A stretch of DNA of 11,077 nucleotides, from the UHGV virus genome UHGV-0128589; one strand, 5' to 3'. The notes beneath the pieces are model-generated. The model was not told the origin of the DNA and did no database searches. It saw only the letters and a program-made list of their open reading frames with translations. Both the position numbers and the translations under genes were made by a program. Within the stretch, counting starts at the first letter, position 1, and every line of letters begins with the position of its first letter. This stretch comes from a virus. Shown here piece by piece: positions 1 through 11,077 of the stretch.

Positions 1-20
1 ACAGCAGAAAATTTGCGAGC

Positions 21-239
21 ATGATCGCAATTATTTCACTGCCAGGGATATCAATAGCTTCCAGTAAATCGCTACAGCAGGCAATTGCCAATATAAAAAT
101 CTGGCACAAGGGTGAACAGCGCGCGCCGCATAAGCCATTGTTATTGCTATACGTATTAGCGGGATACCTGAATGGACATCCGCGCCTTTTCGATTATTGT
201 AGTGGAACAGTCTACGAGGATGCAGTTCGAAGTGAGTAA
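21..239 (+). CDS. hypothetical protein, flanking DNA outside the satellite (possibly a gene fragment)
   Basis: 72-codon ORF from the ORF track; no motif I can name; lies left of the att-like repeat at 684-722. Confidence 0.3.
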   Translation: MIAIISLPGISIASSKSLQQAIANIKIWHKGEQRAPHKPLLLLYVLAGYLNGHPRLFDYCSGTVYEDAVRSE

Positions 240-262
240 GTAAAGGTTGCTGGAAACGATCA

Positions 263-481
263 ATGCCGCCATACAATGATTTTTTAGGATCAACAATGAG
301 TAATAAAAACTACGAAAGTCACCGCAAAGCGATTGTTAGTAAAGGTATACCACCCGCTCTATTAAATAGGCTCACCAATTCGGATGTTCAGGTGATCAAT
401 ACCTTCTTAACACGAGTGAGCAAACTGGAACTATCTCAACAAGAGAAAGACTGGATCATAAAAATCATCTCTATGGTTTAG
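263..481 (+). CDS. hypothetical protein, flanking DNA (start uncertain; internal ATG at 296 also possible)
   Basis: 72-codon ORF directly after the previous ORF on the same strand; no recognisable motif; the pair may be fragments of one disrupted gene. Confidence 0.3.
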   Translation: MPPYNDFLGSTMSNKNYESHRKAIVSKGIPPALLNRLTNSDVQVINTFLTRVSKLELSQQEKDWIIKIISMV

Positions 482-683
482 ACAATTTCAGCCTTGTAGC
501 CTTTCAAGGGTTTTGTGTGGGTACAAACATTATCGAATCGGGGTATAGCCGCAGCTGTAGCTGTATCCACATCAGTAAGTTGATGTAGGTTGACTTAGGT
601 TGAGCGAAAAATAGCGAAAAGCCTTGTGTGGCGCGGATTTCAGTCATAAAAAAACGTCCGTTGATGTCTATTGATGTTCCGAT

Positions 684-722
684 GGTGCGAAGGTGCGAAG
701 GTGCGAAGGCCGGACTCAAACC
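684..722. repeat. att-like degenerate copy of the tRNA-Leu 3-prime end (left boundary of the element), preceded by GGTGCGAA x3 tandem repeat
   Basis: ggtgcgaaggccggactcaaacc (700-722) matches tggtgccgaaggccggactcgaacc at 11024-11048 with one indel and one substitution; three tandem GGTGCGAA units at 684-707. Confidence 0.6.
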
Positions 723-1063: not shown

Positions 1064-3397
1064 TTATTTCGCTGTGGGGTCATCGCACTTCGGCAGCCAG
1101 TCGGCGTTGCTTTCTTCCCTGAGCGCAAGATTGGTCTGTATGCCCTGATTTTTACGGCGCTTCTCATAACTCAGTCCGTACTCTTTTAGCATCGCTGGCA
1201 GTCCCTTGCCGAACATGGTGAGGCTAAGAGTATTCTTGTAGCCGTGGGCCTCCATGTACGCCAGGTAGGCATGATAGAGGTAAAGTCGCGGCTGACGCGG
1301 AATGATGTTGGCATTGCCAATATACATACCCTCAGGTTCCGGCAGCGCCTCCAGATAGCCACAAAAATCAAATGTCGGGTCGGCGTCGCGCTTGATGCTG
1401 AGCGCCTCGTCGGAATTCTGCTGTGACTGGAGCAGTGTGCGCGCGGTCATCGGGTCGCTGAACTTCTGCATTAGCTGGCGCACAATGACGGCCAGCTCGC
1501 GGGCGATTTTGTTCTTAAGCTGCGGGTCGCGTTCTTCCGGGGCAATCTGCTCCGGGAAATGCAGAATCACCCGGCGACGGGAAACACCGCCGCTGCGGTC
1601 AGTAAAGCGCATCGGGTTATTGTTCACGGCCAGAATCACCGCCGGAATATGGGTGGAGTACGCATCCTTGTATTTCGGGTCTACCGATACCGCATCCCCG
1701 CCGGTGATGGCCTTGAGTCCGGCTCCGTCACCACTCCATTTTTCCTGGTCAGGCAGTCGAATCAGCGAGAAGCCAATCAGTGCGGCACGTTCACGCGGTG
1801 ATTCCAGCGTTTCGATGGTGGCCGACGTGGCGTTATCTTCCCCGGCAAGCATGGTCGCAATTTCGGCCAGAATACTTTTCCCGCTGCCGCCGGGCCCGGT
1901 CACCTCAAGAAAGAGCTGCCAGTCGTAGCGGTTCGCCAGCACCATAAACAGCGCGGCCAGAATCACATCGCGTTTTTCTGGTCTGCCACCGGCAGCACGG
2001 TCGAGCCAGCGCCAGAAATCCGGTGCATGGGTTTCCAGCGTTTCGCCCTCCACCGGCGGGGTAAAATCGACATCACAGAGTGTGCGCAGCCAGTGCGATT
2101 TATCATGCGGGTTGAATGTGCCGGTGGCGGTATCAAGTACGCCGTTGCGAAAGCCAATCAGACGCCGTGCCGGGGCGTCCTGCTGCGGAATAATCAGTTT
2201 CAGGGTCTCCACCACCGAGGCAATTTTTCCCGACGAGAACGGTGCGCGCAGACGCTGGAACAACCCGGCCACGTCGCGGGCAAAGTCCGACGGCGGAATG
2301 ATTTTCCATATCCCGGCCTCATAACGGGACAGGAGCTGGCCGTTCGCGTCCACGGCCAGCGCTTCGCCGTAATGCTCATGCACCCGCATCGCTTTTTCAC
2401 TGGTGCTCATGGCGGTAAATTCCGCCTCGCTCATGGTAGTGAAAGGACTGTCAGCCGGTGGCCGGATGGCCTCATAAATGGCTTTCCGCATCGCCTCCTC
2501 ACCTTTCTGTTCAAATGCGTCATTCCAGTCACCGAACACCGGCGGCAGGGCAACAATACCGTCACAGGCTTCTGCGGCCGCTGCGGCTTTACTCTGGCCG
2601 TCGCCGTTCAGGTCGCGGTCGGCGGCGAGGACAATCTGACAGGCCGGGTATTTCTGACGGGCAAGGCTCGCCAGAGAAAGGAGGTTTGCGGACGACAGTG
2701 CCACCATGACGGTTTCCCCGGTCAGGTGATGTACGGTGAGCGCGGTCGCATAGCCCTCCGCTATCCACAGCCGTTTTCCCGCCTGTTTTTTCCCTTCGAT
2801 GGTGTGGCACGCTCCTTTTACCGCCCCGCCTTTCAGGGTGCGTTTGAGACCCTCAGAATTGATGAGCTGAAGGTTAACCAGTGCATCGGTATTGTCATAC
2901 AGCGGGACAACCACATCACCGGCGCGGAACGTCACGCCGCCGGTTTTATGCACGGCCGTGAGCGTCAGACATTCCAGAGCGGGGAAGCCCTTGCGGGTCA
3001 GGTAGGCGTTGCCGCTGGCCGTGCGGGTTTTCTCCATCAGTCTGACGGCCAGCGTGGCCGCCGCTTTACGGTCTGCTTCGGTTTCAGCCTCTGCGGCCAC
3101 AATCACCTCCGGGGCAACCGGCGACAGGTTACCGGCGACGACATTCACCTTTTGGGCTGCCTCTGACGGATTAACGCCGAACACCTTTTCAACCAGTTTC
3201 AGGCCATCCCCTGCGCCGCACTGGTTACAGAACCACGTCCCGCGACCCTCTTTATCGTCAAACCGGAAACGGTCAGAACCGCCGCACACCGGGCAGGGCT
3301 GATGCCGGTTTTTAATGACCTTCACCCCCAGCGCCGGGAGAATGCGCGGCCAGTGGCCGCACGCCTGTTTTACGGTTTCCGTTACGTTCATTTTCAT
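1064..3397 (-). CDS. alpha: P4-type alpha protein: DNA primase / SF3 replicative helicase
   Basis: 777-aa ORF; N-terminal CxxC...CxxC zinc-binding primase region (CPVCGGSDRF...FCNQCGAG); Walker A P-loop GPGGSGKS in the C-terminal half; RBS GGGAGAA upstream; flanked by iterons, as for P4 alpha. Confidence 0.95.
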   Translation of the reverse strand: MKMNVTETVKQACGHWPRILPALGVKVIKNRHQPCPVCGGSDRFRFDDKEGRGTWFCNQCGAGDGLKLVEKVFGVNPSEAAQKVNVVAGNLSPVAPEVIVAAEAETEADRKAAATLAVRLMEKTRTASGNAYLTRKGFPALECLTLTAVHKTGGVTFRAGDVVVPLYDNTDALVNLQLINSEGLKRTLKGGAVKGACHTIEGKKQAGKRLWIAEGYATALTVHHLTGETVMVALSSANLLSLASLARQKYPACQIVLAADRDLNGDGQSKAAAAAEACDGIVALPPVFGDWNDAFEQKGEEAMRKAIYEAIRPPADSPFTTMSEAEFTAMSTSEKAMRVHEHYGEALAVDANGQLLSRYEAGIWKIIPPSDFARDVAGLFQRLRAPFSSGKIASVVETLKLIIPQQDAPARRLIGFRNGVLDTATGTFNPHDKSHWLRTLCDVDFTPPVEGETLETHAPDFWRWLDRAAGGRPEKRDVILAALFMVLANRYDWQLFLEVTGPGGSGKSILAEIATMLAGEDNATSATIETLESPRERAALIGFSLIRLPDQEKWSGDGAGLKAITGGDAVSVDPKYKDAYSTHIPAVILAVNNNPMRFTDRSGGVSRRRVILHFPEQIAPEERDPQLKNKIARELAVIVRQLMQKFSDPMTARTLLQSQQNSDEALSIKRDADPTFDFCGYLEALPEPEGMYIGNANIIPRQPRLYLYHAYLAYMEAHGYKNTLSLTMFGKGLPAMLKEYGLSYEKRRKNQGIQTNLALREESNADWLPKCDDPTAK

Positions 3398-4147: not shown

Positions 4148-4350
4148 AGTGGCAACCTCCAATGTTTGCATGTGACTGCTACCACTGGAAACGCCAATTT
4201 CACTGGTGGTAGCCCAGACGGGGTTGGCGTAACCGGCAACATTGGAAACCGGCGCTTCGTGAGAAGCCCCCGCCTGAGCCACCATTACTCGAAGGATCCA
4301 AAGGTAGATAAATCTCTGGATCAAAAATGGATGCACTGAGGCATAGACAC

Positions 4351-4372
4351 AAAAAAAGACGCAAGGCGCGTC
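4351..4372 (-). terminator. candidate intrinsic terminator/attenuator inside the leader between the AlpA-like gene and the Icd-like gene
   Basis: On the minus strand GACGC-GCCTT-GCGTC (5-bp GC stem) immediately followed by TTTTTTT. Confidence 0.4.
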
Positions 4373-4500
4373 CGGTGTCGCCAATGTTGTAAACGGGACG
4401 CCAATCCCGGCTGCCGATTTTGCGACAGCGGGAAAACTATACCTGGAAACGGCAAACGGAAGCAAGCCAGAAAAAGGGACTTTTTGCTGAGCGGCCATCA

Positions 4501-5034: not shown

Positions 5035-5140
5035 GGGTGAACAGTAGTGAACAGTCAGTGAACAGTTACACCCTCAACTGTTCACCCTTTATCTTACTGT
5101 ATTAATTATCTTTTTCTTTTTAGTGAACAGTAGTGAATAG
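5035..5140. repeat. second iteron cluster of GTGAACAG/CTGTTCACC repeats (P4 ori/crr-type)
   Basis: gtgaacag at 5037-5044, 5047-5054, 5058-5065 and 5123-5130; ctgttcaccc at 5078-5087; gtgaatag at 5133-5140; about 4.1 kb from the cluster at 921-1012. Confidence 0.65.
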
Positions 5141-5233: not shown

Positions 5234-5305
5234 ACGGCAATGAATCGTGTTGTTGTGTCTGGCGCGGCAGAATCTCTTCAGATTGAAACGAAGAGGAGAC
5301 CCGAC

Positions 5306-6043
5306 ATGACTCAGACCGCTGTTATTCCCGACTATCTTAAACCCGCAATGGAACACCTTGAAACTGCCCGGTCAGCGCATCTTGCCAATGCCAGTCGAAT
5401 GGATGAAACCACGGCTGCCATCAGCCAGGTAAAAGCACAAAAAAATGAACTGGAGCAGGAAAATGGCAATGATTCCGGTGCATGGCGCACCGCCTTTCGT
5501 GCCGGTGGTGCTGTGATTACTGACGAGCTGAAACAACGCCATATAGCGCGTGTAGCACGGCGTGAACTGGTACAGGAATGTGACAGCATGACAGAGGTAT
5601 TGTCTTTTGAGCTGGACAACCTAAAGGGAGCCTGTGACAGCACGGCCAGAGCGTACCGCCAGGCACATCACGGCGTCCTCAGCCAGTATGCAAAGCATGA
5701 GCTCGATGTTGCCCTGCGTGAAACCTGTGGTGCTCTCGTCAGGGCAATGAAACTTAACATACTGGTTCTGAATAACCCTCTTGCCAATACCATCGGCCAT
5801 CAGGGATATACCGAACCGGAAAAGGCTGTGATGCAGCAGGTTAAAGCGTGGCTTGAACAGGCAGTGAAGGGCTGCAACATCCGCCTGACCGATGAGCCGG
5901 TGCTGTTTAAAACAGGACTGTCGGCCTCCACGCTGCCTCATATGGAGTATGACGTTGCGGCCACGCCCGGCCAGCGTCAGGTGTGGTTCGAGAAAATGAA
6001 CAAACGTGAGTCTGACCTTAAGGCCCGGGGGTTACTGTCATGA
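5306..6043 (+). CDS. sid: Sid-like capsid size determination (external scaffold) protein
   Basis: 245-aa product from the internal ATG at 5306 with SD GAGGAG upstream; first gene of a sid-delta-psu arrangement; the ORF-track start at 5240 has no RBS. Confidence 0.8.
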   Translation: MTQTAVIPDYLKPAMEHLETARSAHLANASRMDETTAAISQVKAQKNELEQENGNDSGAWRTAFRAGGAVITDELKQRHIARVARRELVQECDSMTEVLSFELDNLKGACDSTARAYRQAHHGVLSQYAKHELDVALRETCGALVRAMKLNILVLNNPLANTIGHQGYTEPEKAVMQQVKAWLEQAVKGCNIRLTDEPVLFKTGLSASTLPHMEYDVAATPGQRQVWFEKMNKRESDLKARGLLS

Positions 6044-6285
6044 TGCGCTGCCCTTTCTGCCGCACGGCGGCCCATGTGCGCACCAGCCGCTATATGTCTG
6101 ACAGCGTCAAAGAGAGCTACCTGCAGTGCCAGAATGTGCACTGCTCGGCGACGTTCAAAACACATGAGTCGATTTTTGAAGTGATCCGCTCGCCGGGTGT
6201 CGATGAGAAACCCGCGCCGGTGCCGACAGCGTCCGTTGCCATCCGCAAGGTAAAAGGCTGCTACAGCTCACCGTTCCGCCATTAA
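6040..6285 (+). CDS. delta: Ogr/Delta-family zinc-finger late transcriptional activator (single domain)
   Basis: 81-aa ORF with CPFC...(21 residues)...CQNVHC zinc-finger spacing; start overlaps the sid stop (ATGA). Confidence 0.85.
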   Translation: MMRCPFCRTAAHVRTSRYMSDSVKESYLQCQNVHCSATFKTHESIFEVIRSPGVDEKPAPVPTASVAIRKVKGCYSSPFRH

Positions 6286-6301
6286 TCAGGAGAGACAACA
6301 C

Positions 6302-6868
6302 GTGACCACCCTGACATTACAGCAGGCGTTTGAAGCCTGTCAGACGAACAAAACGGCGTGGCTGAATCGTAAAGCCGAACTGGCCTCCGCAGAGCAGGAA
6401 TATCAGGAATTATTACTGGATGACAACGCACCGGGTTCCCGCAGATTACAGATGCTACGTGACCTTATCGACGTAAAAAAATGGGAAGTTAATCAGGCCG
6501 CCGGTCGCTATATCTTCTCGCATGAGGAGGTACAGCGCATCAGCATCCGTAACCGTGTGCATGATTTTATGCAGCAGAACGGCGCAGAACTGGCCGCTGC
6601 ACTGGCCCCTGAGCTGATGGGGATTAAAAACCAGCCCGCGATGATAAAAAACCGTGCGCTTGACCGTTCAGTCACTTACCTGAGAGAAGCTCTTTCCGTC
6701 TGGCTGACCGCAGGAAATGAAATTAATTATTCGGCACAGGATAACGACATTTTAACGGCCATCGGATACAGGCCTGACGCGCCCTCGCGGGATGATTATC
6801 GTGAAAAATTCACCCCTGCACAGAACATGATTTACACCCGTCGACGCGCCGAACTGGCCGCGCAGTAG
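6302..6868 (+). CDS. psu: Psu-like polarity suppression / capsid decoration protein
   Basis: 188-aa ORF with GTG start and SD AGGAG upstream; N-terminus TLTLQQAFEACQTNKTAWLNRKAELASAEQEY resembles P4 Psu as I recall it; third gene after sid and delta. Confidence 0.8.
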   Translation: MTTLTLQQAFEACQTNKTAWLNRKAELASAEQEYQELLLDDNAPGSRRLQMLRDLIDVKKWEVNQAAGRYIFSHEEVQRISIRNRVHDFMQQNGAELAAALAPELMGIKNQPAMIKNRALDRSVTYLREALSVWLTAGNEINYSAQDNDILTAIGYRPDAPSRDDYREKFTPAQNMIYTRRRAELAAQ

Positions 6869-6914
6869 CCCGTCAAAAAATCCTCGTAAATCCCGCTATT
6901 TTTAACCAAATAAG

Positions 6915-6941
6915 CCATGCATCCATAAGGTGCATGGTTTT
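6915..6941 (+). terminator. candidate terminator after psu
   Basis: ccatgca...tgcatgg 7-bp stem followed by tttt, about 45 nt after the psu stop. Confidence 0.35.
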
Positions 6942-7034
6942 GCATGTGTTTTCCCGCCCCTGCACTCCCTGCCAGCGCCAGTCGCGGCGCGACCTGAGAC
7001 CACCTTTGCACCTGCATTAAAAGCGCCCCCTTAA

Positions 7035-7065
7035 GCGGGCAGGCGGGGCGGGGAGAGCATTGCGC
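7035..7065. other. candidate cos / packaging region
   Basis: GC-rich tract gggcaggcggggcggggagagcat loosely resembling the P2/P4 cohesive-end sequence as recalled; located between psu and the accessory genes, where cos lies in a permuted P4 prophage. Not an exact match. Confidence 0.25.
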
Positions 7066-7122
7066 GCAAGATGCCGCGCATTAAAAAGACGTTCTAAAAC
7101 GAAAAAAGCTATAGCGATGAAA

Positions 7123-7143
7123 CATATCTATAAGATAGATATG
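7123..7143. promoter_or_regulatory. perfect 9-bp inverted repeat (candidate operator) upstream of the accessory operon
   Basis: catatctat-aag-atagatatg, about 95 bp upstream of the ATG at 7239. Confidence 0.35.
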
Positions 7144-7238
7144 GCATTACTCCTAAATATGTGTAAAAAATAGTGATACCTATGCAACCCTTTTCTCTGC
7201 TCTTTCAAGGACAAATCTCAGGTTAAGAGAGTCATCAG

Positions 7239-7619
7239 ATGCTAAATCATATTTATGGAATTGTTGGTATAGTTGGCACATTAGTTACGATTGTGACGAG
7301 TTACATCAGAAATCAAGAATTGTCGCAATGGTTCCTTGTATGTTCTGGTTGGCTTACGGCTCTATTGATAGGTTGGTTCACGCATAGAACTATTAAAATT
7401 CTAAGCAAAGATCACAAAGAAACCATCATTAGTAATGATGGTATAAAGCAAACGCTTATAGAGCGGAATGAAACATTAACCACACAACTTACGCATGCAT
7501 TAGAACAGAAAGAAAAAATGGAAGGAATCGCGGCTTATTTAGCAACTCAGAACCCACAAATTAACGCCATGCCTAGAGCCATCGCGCGACAAGAAAATAC
7601 TGAGCTAGGAGGTAATTAA
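7239..7619 (+). CDS. small two-transmembrane-helix protein with C-terminal charged/helical tail; first gene of the accessory operon
   Basis: 126-aa ORF; hydrophobic segments IYGIVGIVGTLVTIVTSYI and WFLVCSGWLTALLIGWF; RBS AAGAGAG 7 nt upstream; AT-rich codon usage unlike the core genes. Confidence 0.7.
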   Translation: MLNHIYGIVGIVGTLVTIVTSYIRNQELSQWFLVCSGWLTALLIGWFTHRTIKILSKDHKETIISNDGIKQTLIERNETLTTQLTHALEQKEKMEGIAAYLATQNPQINAMPRAIARQENTELGGN

Positions 7620-7620
7620 G

Positions 7621-8685
7621 ATGAAAGTAAATTTTGATAGTTATTCATATTATCCTGCATTAAGAACTCGTGCAGCTGAAATACTTGGCTTGAGTAAGCT
7701 TGCTCATGATAAGAAAGAGAAAGTACTTCCACTTATAACCTTAGGGAAATGGCCCCGCTCAGATGAAATTCAAGTTTCTCTTGATAAGAGTCTGGAAGCA
7801 ATGAATAACTTGCCTTTTATTCTGGACGTTACTCAAGAGAACAAGCATCATTGCGCATCAAGCTTTGATCTTCTATCTTCCGAAAATAATTTTTCAAACT
7901 GGATAGCTTTCTGCTCTAAGAATGAGAATATTATCCCCGTAGTTCAAATGCCTGAATCTGCAAGATTAAGGGATATAGTACAGCAAGCAAGAATACTTGA
8001 AGAAAATAAAGGTTCCATTGCATTTCGCATAAAGAACCTTAACACTGATATAAATAAAACAATAGCATCACTTGTGTCTCTCGACTCCCCTGAAAATGCG
8101 GTTATATTCATAGACTTGGGTTACATTCGCGGACATGTCTCAGCAATGACGTCTGCTGCCATAAGTGCAATCAACCAAATAAGGACAGAAATTCCTGAAG
8201 CTATAATTAGTGTACTGTCGACTAGTTTCCCAAGTTCGGTCGCAAACTTTGCAGGAGAAAATGGTCAATCTGGTTATATTGACATTATGGAAAGAGAATT
8301 CCACCAAACTATTGGTGGTCGAGGAGTATCTATATACGGAGATCATAGTTCAATTCACTCTGTTGTATATGATGATGTTGGTGGACGTTATGTCCCAAGA
8401 ATTGACATTGCATTAGATGATGCTTGGTTTTTTGAGAGAAGACCAGGACTTGATAGTAAAGGCTATATAGAAGCAGCAAGAGCGATTCTTAAAAGATACC
8501 CTAATTATCTTGAAGAAGAATCCTGGGGTGCGCTGATGATTAAAAACGCTGCATCAGGCGATATTGCTGGTATGGGGAGTCCCGCTAAATGGATTTCTGT
8601 GCGCGTGAACCTTCATATAACAAAGCAAATTGAGCTATCAGAAGCACTTAAAACAGATTACGATCCTGAAGAGGATTTCTTCTAA
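7621..8685 (+). CDS. uncharacterised 354-aa protein, second gene of the accessory operon; function unknown
   Basis: Long ORF starting 1 nt after the upstream stop; strong SD AGGAGGT 9 nt upstream, embedded in the last codons of the upstream gene; no Walker or other catalytic motif recognisable by eye. Confidence 0.8.
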   Translation: MKVNFDSYSYYPALRTRAAEILGLSKLAHDKKEKVLPLITLGKWPRSDEIQVSLDKSLEAMNNLPFILDVTQENKHHCASSFDLLSSENNFSNWIAFCSKNENIIPVVQMPESARLRDIVQQARILEENKGSIAFRIKNLNTDINKTIASLVSLDSPENAVIFIDLGYIRGHVSAMTSAAISAINQIRTEIPEAIISVLSTSFPSSVANFAGENGQSGYIDIMEREFHQTIGGRGVSIYGDHSSIHSVVYDDVGGRYVPRIDIALDDAWFFERRPGLDSKGYIEAARAILKRYPNYLEEESWGALMIKNAASGDIAGMGSPAKWISVRVNLHITKQIELSEALKTDYDPEEDFF

Positions 8686-8710
8686 AAAATAAGGGAGGGC
8701 AGCCTCCCTT
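8683..8710 (-). terminator. terminator hairpin between the convergent accessory genes (strongest for the minus-strand gene)
   Basis: aagggagg-gcag-cctccctt perfect 8-bp stem; on the minus strand it is followed by ATTTTTT. Confidence 0.55.
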
Positions 8711-9503
8711 ATCGCACGACCCTTTTCAAAACTTTGATGGGAGTGATACTCCCAACCTCTCCGTGCTTTCTCATAAACCCCTCAATATCAACTGTATAAA
8801 AATCATCTAATTTTTCATCAGTATTATCTTCGAAATCTTTAAAGTGATTATGTTCCCGTCTCTTTTTTGATTTACTTAACAAAGTCAAATCGTTAGCATT
8901 CGATAATTCGCTACCTGCTAATTTCTTCAAGTAATCATCAGAAGTTTCTTTATAGCGTTGCTTAATTGCTTTAAGCGCAAAGTCTCTAATTCTAGATAGG
9001 GGAATTTGTTCAGCTATACGCTCTAAAGCCTCACGACCAGACTCGAGTAAAAACTTTTTCCCATTTTCAACAAGAAGTAATTGCAACTCTTTTTTCAGTA
9101 AGAAATTAATATAAACCTTCTTATTACCGAGTACTGCCGTACGCCCACGCTGAACTATTTTAAAACGAATGCCTTTACTAGTATTTATGTATTCAATAAC
9201 ACCAACATCTGATGTTACTTTCTTCGCAATTTCATAAGTAAATTTTGGGGCACAAACAACAGTTACCTTTTCAAAACGAGATGTAAAGGTTTCTAACTGA
9301 CCATCTAATCTTTTAAGAGAGTCAAAATCACTTTTTATTTCAAAAGCTTGCAAGTGTCCATTCGCAACGGCCAGATCAGCGCGGCGACTCCAATTCGCTA
9401 CAACCATTTCATTAATAATGGTTGCGTTCTCTAACAAGCCTTTTTTAAAAAGCCAGTCAATAAATGCGACTTTTACATCTTGCTCTCTTAATAAAAATGA
9501 CAT
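8709..9503 (-). CDS. stand-alone protein with N-terminal PD-(D/E)xK nuclease-like domain and charged helical C-terminal region
   Basis: 264-aa ORF; motif order E7 ... RADLAV (D42) ... AFEIKSD (E54-x-K56) fits the PD-(D/E)xK core; own extended -10 promoter and own terminator; very AT-rich. Confidence 0.8.
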   Translation of the reverse strand: MSFLLREQDVKVAFIDWLFKKGLLENATIINEMVVANWSRRADLAVANGHLQAFEIKSDFDSLKRLDGQLETFTSRFEKVTVVCAPKFTYEIAKKVTSDVGVIEYINTSKGIRFKIVQRGRTAVLGNKKVYINFLLKKELQLLLVENGKKFLLESGREALERIAEQIPLSRIRDFALKAIKQRYKETSDDYLKKLAGSELSNANDLTLLSKSKKRREHNHFKDFEDNTDEKLDDFYTVDIEGFMRKHGEVGSITPIKVLKRVVR

Positions 9504-9529
9504 AATCTCGTCACACCCTTAAAAATTGT

Positions 9530-9545
9530 TAAAAATTATAGCAAA
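9530..9545 (-). promoter_or_regulatory. candidate extended -10 promoter (TGcTATAAT) for the 8709..9503 gene
   Basis: Minus strand reads ttgcTATAATtttt in the 91-bp gap between the int stop and the downstream gene start. Confidence 0.4.
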
Positions 9546-9594
9546 AAAAACAAACTCCATCCATTATTCCTCTTGAGTTTTTTTTGATAAAGAG

Positions 9595-10872
9595 CTAGAT
9601 GTCATTTATTTTACTCCCACAGTCATACGGTGATATATACTCCTTATTATTTAGATCTAAATAATCAGCCCACCACTGAACCATTTTGCGCCTTTCATCT
9701 AAATGTTCTGATGTATGAATATAAGCAGCCCTAACGCCATTACGTTCTGTGTGACTCAACTGACGTTCTATAGCGTCATCGCTCCATAATCCTGACTCAC
9801 CCAGCGCACCACGGGCCATCGTTCTAAATCCATGCCCGCAAACTTCAGTTTTCGTGTCATAGCCCATCGCACGCAATGCGCTGTTTACCGTGTTTTCACT
9901 CATAACCTTAGTTGCGTCATGATCCCCCGGGAACAGCAGCTCTTTATCACCACTAATTTGCTTGAGCTGCTCTAATAAAACCATCGCCTGCCGACTGAGA
10001 GGAACAATATGCTCCTCTTTCATTTTCATGCCACGATACGAGTAACGCACGCCCTTAATTTCTTCTCGCTTTGCAGGTATACGCCAAAGAGATTTATCGA
10101 AGTCGAACTCATCCCAACGCGCGAAACGCAACTCACTGGAACGCACAAAAGTTAGTAAGGAAAGCTCAACCGCGATCCGTGTCATTACACGGCCACGATA
10201 TGCAGCAAGACGTGCAAGAAACTCAGGGAACCGGCTAGAGGGTAAAGCGGGGTAATGTCGCGCTTTGGTTGTCGATAGCGCACCGGCCATATCACTGGCT
10301 GGATTTGAGTCGATGTAATCGTTCTGTACTGCATAACGCATGATAGCCGTGACACGCTGCTGAAGACGCTGTGCGACGTCATGCTTACCACTTGCATCAA
10401 CTTTTTTAATCGGGGCTAACAGGTGGCTAGTCTTGAGCTGGCGAATGTCGGACGAACCAATATGAGGGAAGATATAAAGCTCAAGATAGCGAAGAACGCG
10501 CGATCGATGGTCTTCACTCCAGCGCTTGTTACTGGCGTGCCATTCACGAGCAATGGTTTCGAAAGTATATGCCCCCGAATTCTCGGCCTGAGCTTCTTTC
10601 TGTTCGGCTTTTGGGTCAATGCCCTGCACTAGCAGCTTTTTAGCTTCATCGCGCTTTGCTCTTGCCTGAGCAAGCGTCACAGTAGGCCAAACACCAAAAG
10701 CGAGGCGATCCTCTTTTTTGTCTGAGGGGCGTCTGTATTTCATGCGCCAGTATTTAGAACCCTTAGCCGAAATCTCGAGATACAAACCGCCGCCATCGGC
10801 CATTTTGTAGGTTTTTTCTTTTGGCTTTGCGGTCTCGACCTGTCTGGCGTTGAGCTTCATTTGGGGGCACAT
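9595..10872 (-). CDS. int: P4-type tyrosine integrase / site-specific recombinase
   Basis: 425-aa ORF; N-terminus with the ...KTYKMADGGGLYLEI... motif typical of P4-family integrases; C-terminal HGFRTMARG and downstream tyrosine (VRAAYIH); about 150 bp from the tRNA 3-prime end. Start may be the ATG at 10860 (MKLNARQ). Confidence 0.95.
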   Translation of the reverse strand: MCPQMKLNARQVETAKPKEKTYKMADGGGLYLEISAKGSKYWRMKYRRPSDKKEDRLAFGVWPTVTLAQARAKRDEAKKLLVQGIDPKAEQKEAQAENSGAYTFETIAREWHASNKRWSEDHRSRVLRYLELYIFPHIGSSDIRQLKTSHLLAPIKKVDASGKHDVAQRLQQRVTAIMRYAVQNDYIDSNPASDMAGALSTTKARHYPALPSSRFPEFLARLAAYRGRVMTRIAVELSLLTFVRSSELRFARWDEFDFDKSLWRIPAKREEIKGVRYSYRGMKMKEEHIVPLSRQAMVLLEQLKQISGDKELLFPGDHDATKVMSENTVNSALRAMGYDTKTEVCGHGFRTMARGALGESGLWSDDAIERQLSHTERNGVRAAYIHTSEHLDERRKMVQWWADYLDLNNKEYISPYDCGSKINDI

Positions 10873-11023: not shown

Positions 11024-11077
11024 TGGTGCCGAAGGCCGGACTCGAACCGGCACGTATTTCTACGGTTGATTTTGAAT
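11024..11077 (-). tRNA. leuX: tRNA-Leu(CAA), leuX-type, 3-prime portion only (truncated by the window edge)
   Basis: Reverse complement reads ATTCAAAATCAACCGTAGAAATACGTGCCGGTTCGAGTCCGGCCTTCGGCACCA: anticodon loop with CAA, variable arm, T-arm GGTTCGAGTCC and acceptor end with CCA; matches E. coli leuX as I recall it. Confidence 0.85.

Follow-up and report, generated by a model that had tools for sequence, protein, structure and literature searches.

A diverged allele of the P4 gop-beta-cII cassette as hotspot cargo between cos and int of a P4-like satellite at tRNA-Leu in Escherichia coli

Background

The locus next to cos in the satellite phage P4 has been described as a defence hotspot (Rousset et al. 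2022, PMC9122126), and among its cargo is the three-gene cassette gop-beta-cII, which forms cluster 9 of the P4 hotspot cargo in the Domainator study (PMC11754643). The cassette has been known since 1990 and its anti-phage activity was published in 2022, when plaque assays with the genes on a low-copy vector outside P4 revealed protection against phages lambda and P1 (Rousset et al. 2022, PMC9122126). Gop is reported to be toxic when Beta is lacking (Ghisotti 1990, as cited by Rousset et al. 2022, PMC9122126), and the phage accessory gene orf184 sets off cell death via the gop-beta-cII cassette of strain ECOR59 (Silas et al. 2023, bioRxiv 10.1101/2023.04.06.535777). No published mechanism for gop-beta-cII was found in the literature searched, including that after 2022. 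In this work we analysed an 11,077-nucleotide (nt) stretch of viral DNA, UHGV virus genome UHGV-0128589 (the whole stretch is called the window below), which carries a P4-like satellite whose three-gene cargo between cos and int is almost certainly an orthologue of gop-beta-cII.

The second related system is PD-lambda-2, a three-gene abortive-infection system of the toxin-antitoxin (TA)-like kind that is active against lambda. Its third gene (PD-lambda-2C) is related to a P4 phage antitoxin, and is required for defence and dispensable for toxin neutralisation (Vassallo et al. 2022, PMC9519451). The two systems share this third protein, a Beta homologue (the Beta protein of the window matches the PADLOC model PD-Lambda-2_C with an expect value (E) of 2.3e-09). 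They differ in the rest: instead of Gop, the other two genes of PD-lambda-2 specify a HigB-like protein and a fusion of Xre with a peptidase, and its three PADLOC models include no cII homologue. Searches of the window with Pfam and PADLOC gave no match for a HigB-like or peptidase gene, and the gene upstream of beta is gop.

Results and discussion

Identity of the three-gene cargo

The interval from psu/cos to int contains exactly three open reading frames (ORFs) in the ORF listing of the window (coordinates in Table 1). The initial annotation, made from the letters of the window, had assigned no function to them and had proposed an uncharacterised anti-phage system; profile searches instead match all three proteins to a system already characterised, for which protection against lambda and P1 is published. 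The three proteins match the PADLOC profiles gop (E 5.7e-73, residues 1-126 of 126), beta (E 3.2e-188) and cII (E 1.5e-116), in each case over the full length. Beta is also matched above the gathering score by Pfam Beta_protein (PF14350, E 3.8e-54), cII by the NCBIfam model sce7726_fam (E 3.2e-41, 141 bits against a cut-off of 70), and PF26915 (Phage_P4_cII) is among the precomputed Pfam annotations of these proteins.

When compared over the full length with the P4 proteins (reference records NC_001609, X51522 and M27748), Gop, Beta and cII share 59%, 74% and 56% amino-acid identity, respectively, and gene order, orientation and spacing are those of the P4 annotation. The cassette aligns to P4 bases 234-2531 at 70.5% DNA identity in a sensitive blastn search; a megablast search with the cassette among 50,697 phage records returned no match, not even to P4. 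The exact protein sequences are present at NCBI as "protein gop", "protein beta" and "sce7726 family protein", all from Escherichia coli, and alleles at least 90% identical occur in Salmonella, Klebsiella, Enterobacter, Serratia, Citrobacter and Cronobacter. A megablast search of 5,426 complete E. coli genomes gave no match of at least 85% identity, and only six matches of 14% coverage, to other sce7726 genes.

The likeness to the P4 cassette extends to its setting. In both elements the cassette lies between cos and int, gop is followed by beta with cII convergent to them, the cII terminator hairpin is homologous and the extended -10 element of the cII promoter is identical, and the GC content is 0.37 in the window and 0.36 in P4. 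There are also differences: Gop of the window is shorter by 7 residues, in the central polar region, and the DNA upstream of gop, including a palindrome, departs from that of P4. Every feature of gop-beta-cII that can be tested on sequence was found in the window, that is, Gop, Beta, cII and the architecture with the shared terminator hairpin. The window cassette is a diverged allele of a known system that is already annotated under these names. The full explanation, in which the cargo is gop-beta-cII and works by TA-like abortive infection, we regard as probable. For AT-rich cargo in P4 hotspots, a screen with PADLOC or DefenseFinder should come first.

The cos-to-int hotspot and its cargo

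The proposal that the three genes occupy a variable hotspot between cos and int in a P4-like satellite, a place for defence cargo, was borne out by the match to cos DNA, the satellite genes and the identity of the cassette. A check of related satellites for swapped cargo turned out as predicted: elements with 88-90% identical sid-delta-psu-cos DNA carry other genes in the same slot. In three complete E. coli genomes (here and below, L numbers designate the loci compared) these are a gene for a 661-aa (amino acid) ATP-binding protein in a satellite at ssrA (L013), a SIR2 pseudogene with an internal stop in a satellite at tRNA-Sec that has lost the left half of the element (L014), and a SIR2 gene in a satellite at the tRNA-Leu/ahr/yjgR site, as in the window (L015).

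The three genes were also said to be more AT-rich than the satellite around them, and this is so, by a large margin: GC content is 0.368 in positions 7100-9594 and 0.532 in the rest of the satellite, and third-codon-position GC is 0.27-0.32 in the cargo genes compared with 0.47-0.68 in alpha, psu, sid and int. The conclusion drawn from it, recent horizontal acquisition, was not supported. In all 18 loci measured the cassette lies below its flanks in GC content, by 0.02-0.23 (P4, -0.17), also in hosts with more than 60% GC. Low GC content is a stable property that accompanies the cassette, and therefore gives no evidence for a recent arrival in this satellite.

The cassette is also mobile by itself. 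A Klebsiella copy resides inside a P4-like satellite, and more distant copies are found in a TrbL/insertion sequence (IS) context in Pseudomonas and in the chromosomes of Methylibium and Aeromonas. In a Salmonella enterica draft assembly (L052, GCA_033025915.1) the same allele (90%-identity cluster) lies outside any satellite, between type-IV-pilus genes (PilM, TcpQ, secretin) on one side and SSB/Rpn genes on the other, a neighbourhood that resembles an integrative and conjugative element or a plasmid.

Expression signals

The initial annotation described an operon preceded by a palindrome, and a convergent gene that has a promoter and a terminator to itself; the palindrome is real and the description of the convergent gene is right. 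With a single nucleotide between them, gop and beta would form one operon, and we infer that their translation is coupled. A perfect palindrome stands upstream of gop, and its right arm overlaps the -35 element of a candidate gop-beta promoter that would be weak. The promoter block is conserved in the enterobacterial alleles and partly in P4; a generic consensus promoter scan called 6 sites, with 7.9 expected from shuffles, and this block was not among them.

The palindrome was considered as an operator or hairpin. Only 0.6% of dinucleotide shuffles of the 167-nt gop upstream region contain one like it, so it exceeds chance; yet in the Klebsiella and Salmonella alleles it has eroded with no compensating changes, and the Aeromonas and P4 alleles lack it. 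We assign no function to it.

The extended -10 element of cII, TTGCTATAAT, is the same in all five alleles compared (those of the window, Klebsiella, Salmonella, Aeromonas and P4) despite diverged flanks, and is the sole match in the window. The terminator hairpin downstream overlaps the cII stop codon, with its U-tract overlapping the stop codon of beta, and is homologous to the annotated cII terminator of P4, with stem changes that keep the pairing.

The three proteins

In Gop, hydropathy analysis reveals two N-terminal hydrophobic segments (approximately aa 1-22 and 28-49) which probably span the membrane. After these there follows a polar region, which we read as helical or coiled-coil, and then a C-terminal motif, YLA...A-PR, that is conserved in the family alignment. 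In distant Proteobacteria, too, an iterated profile found proteins of this architecture, encoded directly upstream of beta. Gop is the putative toxic effector of the system.

Beta, the reported antidote to Gop in P4-type cassettes, is confidently predicted to fold as an eight-fold triosephosphate isomerase (TIM) barrel. Many of its invariant polar residues (R15, R17, D69, R170, S202, D241 and H246) are located at or just past the ends of predicted strands. Searches of the PDB with the Beta sequence and profile returned nothing credible.

The N-terminal half of cII is modelled as a PD-(D/E)xK nuclease fold with an alpha-beta-beta-beta-alpha-beta core, in which strand 2 carries D43 and strand 3 carries E55-x-K57; residues E32, D43, E55 and K57 are invariant in 107 homologues. 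The C-terminal half (~140 residues) is helical, and this added domain distinguishes cII from the PD-(D/E)xK nucleases NucS, XisH, Can2 and SPO1766 (PDB 3dnx). PDB searches with the cII sequence and profile gave nothing credible, that is, no relation to any solved structure at the sequence level. With the modelled fold and the intact catalytic motif, cII may act as a nuclease.

Beta and cII as a conserved pair

The distribution of the three genes was followed in a scan with the Beta alignment, one genome per species, which yielded 29 loci from Alpha-, Beta- and Gammaproteobacteria and from one metagenome-assembled genome of the Thermoguttaceae. At 28 of the 28 testable loci a convergent cII gene is found immediately 3' of beta (the remaining locus ends ~200 bp past beta), and the convergent layout is kept even by cII relatives at ~30% identity. 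Gop was found upstream of beta in 18 of the 29 loci after profile iteration, a count from a few dozen loci and from a profile that could drift, though each hit lies exactly upstream of beta. Because cII accompanies Beta at every testable locus and Gop at 18 of 29, the pair that stays constant in these few dozen loci is Beta with cII, and Gop, though common, is a module that can be dispensed with.

The place of Gop can be taken by another protein. At three loci (L018, L019 and L047) an IrrE/ImmA-type Peptidase_M78 gene (E 1.6e-20 to 4.4e-24) stands upstream of beta, an arrangement that recalls the peptidase upstream of the Beta homologue in PD-lambda-2, and three Photorhabdus loci (L042, L044 and L048) have no partner gene upstream of beta. 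Both the peptidase-beta-cII loci and the loci with beta and cII only have the convergent Beta/cII pair in common with the window, often with overlapping 3' ends, and the window differs from them in having Gop.

Several further details of these loci were recorded. The peptidase variant occupies positions 5001-7742 in L018 and 3304-5687 in L047; a further protein of 166-173 aa is encoded upstream of the peptidase in L018 and L019, and L018 adjoins NERD and Mrr-like nuclease genes and looks like a defence island. The 3' ends of beta and cII overlap in L016, L018, L019 and several of the loci L020-L048 (by ~50 nt in L016-L019), and the window has 23 nt between them and one hairpin in common. The overlap hints at antisense or transcriptional-interference coupling.

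We tentatively propose, with less than even confidence, that a widespread family of proteobacterial defence systems has Beta and cII, always convergent, as its unchanging core, with at least three interchangeable arrangements at the front end (Gop, an M78 peptidase or no protein at all), and that Beta would be an enzyme or a sensor of a small molecule or nucleic acid and not a passive antidote. If true, the published view of a gop-beta TA pair with cII as a third gene has the system backwards. A sensing role for Beta is consistent with the finding that its homologue PD-lambda-2C is needed for defence and not for neutralising the toxin.

Proposed mechanism and alternatives

On the mechanism itself our confidence is evenly divided. 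In a TA-like abortive infection, Gop made from the operon that it shares with Beta would be lethal unless restrained by Beta, and the TIM-barrel Beta would hold it silent in uninfected cells. Detection of the infection would fall to Beta and cII together, as the conserved core. This core would be disturbed by a phage product, of which orf184 is one published example; the freed Gop would then damage the membrane, cII may also cut DNA, and the infected cell would die or arrest before the phage cycle is completed. The toxicity of Gop relieved by Beta (in the 1990 work, as quoted in the 2022 paper), the protection against lambda and P1 and the death triggered by orf184 are taken from published work on other alleles and would apply here by analogy; to these we add a presumed action of Gop on the membrane, a possible role of Beta as a sensor or enzyme and a predicted nuclease activity of cII. 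Phage resistance conferred by the window allele itself is likewise putative, being carried over from the P4-type and ECOR59 cassettes.

Several points weigh against the TA-like reading. The window and P4 alleles differ at 26-44% of residues, and the phage range and the trigger may differ with them. Membrane action of Gop, binding of Beta to Gop and cleavage by cII are predictions from sequence and modelled structure. Finally, 11 of the 29 loci have Beta and cII but no Gop; it follows that Gop is not the sole effector of the family, and a simple two-part TA picture may be incomplete.

This last point leads to an alternative centred on the nuclease, in which cII is the effector and breaks down the DNA of the phage or of the host, Beta serves it as regulator or sensor, and Gop is an optional addition, either a second effector or an addiction module that stabilises the cassette. 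The unbroken pairing of Beta with cII argues for it, as do the replacement of Gop by the M78 peptidase, the lack of Gop in Photorhabdus, the invariant catalytic residues of cII, and the requirement for the Beta homologue PD-lambda-2C in defence but not in toxin neutralisation (PMC9519451). We nevertheless consider it unlikely, since the published genetics, as far as they are related in PMC9122126, put the lethality on Gop and its relief on Beta, the nuclease activity of cII is a prediction from the model, and PD-lambda-2 has a Beta homologue with no cII homologue among its three genes.

It is very improbable that the cassette is not primarily for defence and is kept as an addiction module of the plasmid or prophage kind for maintenance of the satellite, or for a function in the satellite life cycle as the historical name cII might imply. 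P4 is able to exist in plasmid form, the genes are TA-like and not essential (PMC9122126), and the cassette travels with several types of mobile element (satellites, the Pseudomonas TrbL/IS context and the Salmonella pilus/SSB/Rpn context), all of which would suit such a function. However, the plaque assays recorded protection against lambda and P1 with the genes outside P4 (PMC9122126), the same slot holds SIR2, ATPase and other defence genes in sister satellites, and the cassette is also found in chromosomes without any satellite. As for a previously unknown defence system without relatives, which a reader without search tools could well suppose and which would agree with the lack of a significant match for Gop or cII in the local copy of Pfam (it holds no model for either), the full-length PADLOC and P4 matches, PF26915 and the NCBI names of the exact sequences leave it practically no chance.

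For experiments on any allele of the TA-like system that we favour, the predicted nuclease fold of cII with its intact motif, the predicted TIM barrel of Beta and the strict pairing of Beta with cII, with Gop optional, can serve as guides.

Satellite layout and insertion site

Table 1. Positions of the cassette, its expression signals and the satellite landmarks in the window
Feature	Position	Strand	Remarks
gop	7239-7619	+	126 aa
beta	7621-8685	+	354 aa; start 1 nt past the gop stop codon
cII	8709-9503	-	264 aa; convergent to beta
Inverted repeat CATATCTAT-aag-ATAGATATG	7123-7131 / 7135-7143		upstream of gop; perfect 9-nt arms, 3-nt loop
Candidate weak sigma-70 promoter, gop-beta	7141-7169	+	ATGGCA, 17 nt, TAAAAA; read by eye
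cII promoter core, extended -10 TTGCTATAAT (TGnTATAAT)	9535-9544	-	31 nt upstream of the cII ATG
cII terminator hairpin	8689-8712	-	10-bp G+C-rich stem, ~-16 kcal/mol; U-run on minus strand only
alpha primase	1064-3397	-	satellite core gene
sid-like gene, delta, psu	5240-6868	+	satellite core genes
psu	6302-6868	+	left neighbour of cargo slot
cos region	~7007-7071		matches P2-like phage cos DNA
int	9595-10872	-	right neighbour of cargo slot
Imperfect 27-nt direct repeats, 85% identical	704-730 and 11030-11056		satellite boundaries, att sites

The satellite is P4-like and inserted at tRNA-Leu, with E. coli identified as the host by exact-protein matches, and besides the genes of Table 1 it carries ORF106-like, Ash/Icd-like and AlpA-like genes. 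The right-hand att repeat lies within a stretch that is identical to the 3' portion of tRNA-Leu genes in Salmonella records; ARAGORN found no complete tRNA in the window, the end of which falls inside the tRNA-Leu gene. The whole window is 99.9% identical to one metagenome contig, and from position ~700 rightward it is 99.98% identical to two of the draft assemblies compared; in every case the position is on the ahr/yjgR side of tRNA-Leu.

To the left of the satellite (window 1-700; compared in L002-L007) the DNA varies among strains with an identical satellite, with HNH/ScoMcrA-like genes in some and a second P4-type integrase in others. This variable flank suggests tandem islands at tRNA-Leu.

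A 61-aa ORF (6832-7017, minus strand) overlaps the end of psu and cos; it is a gene call in one draft assembly (L006) and is probably not a real gene. A terminator-like hairpin is present at 7024-7041 (minus strand), just within the cos-proximal region. Rfam models above the gathering score on the minus strand are the C4 antisense RNA (4202-4289), isrK (4352-4429) and the c4-a1b1 target sites (4390-4442), and we read the segment 4202-4442 as a putative P4-type CI-RNA immunity region, inside or beside the Ash/Icd-like ORF. The heptamer TGTTCAC occurs in 12 copies in the window (1.2 expected by chance) and is concentrated in two clusters, 922-1012 and 5037-5129, which agree with the type-1 ori repeats annotated in P4 (GGTGAACA); the clusters probably represent the crr and ori iteron sets, putative binding sites of the alpha protein.

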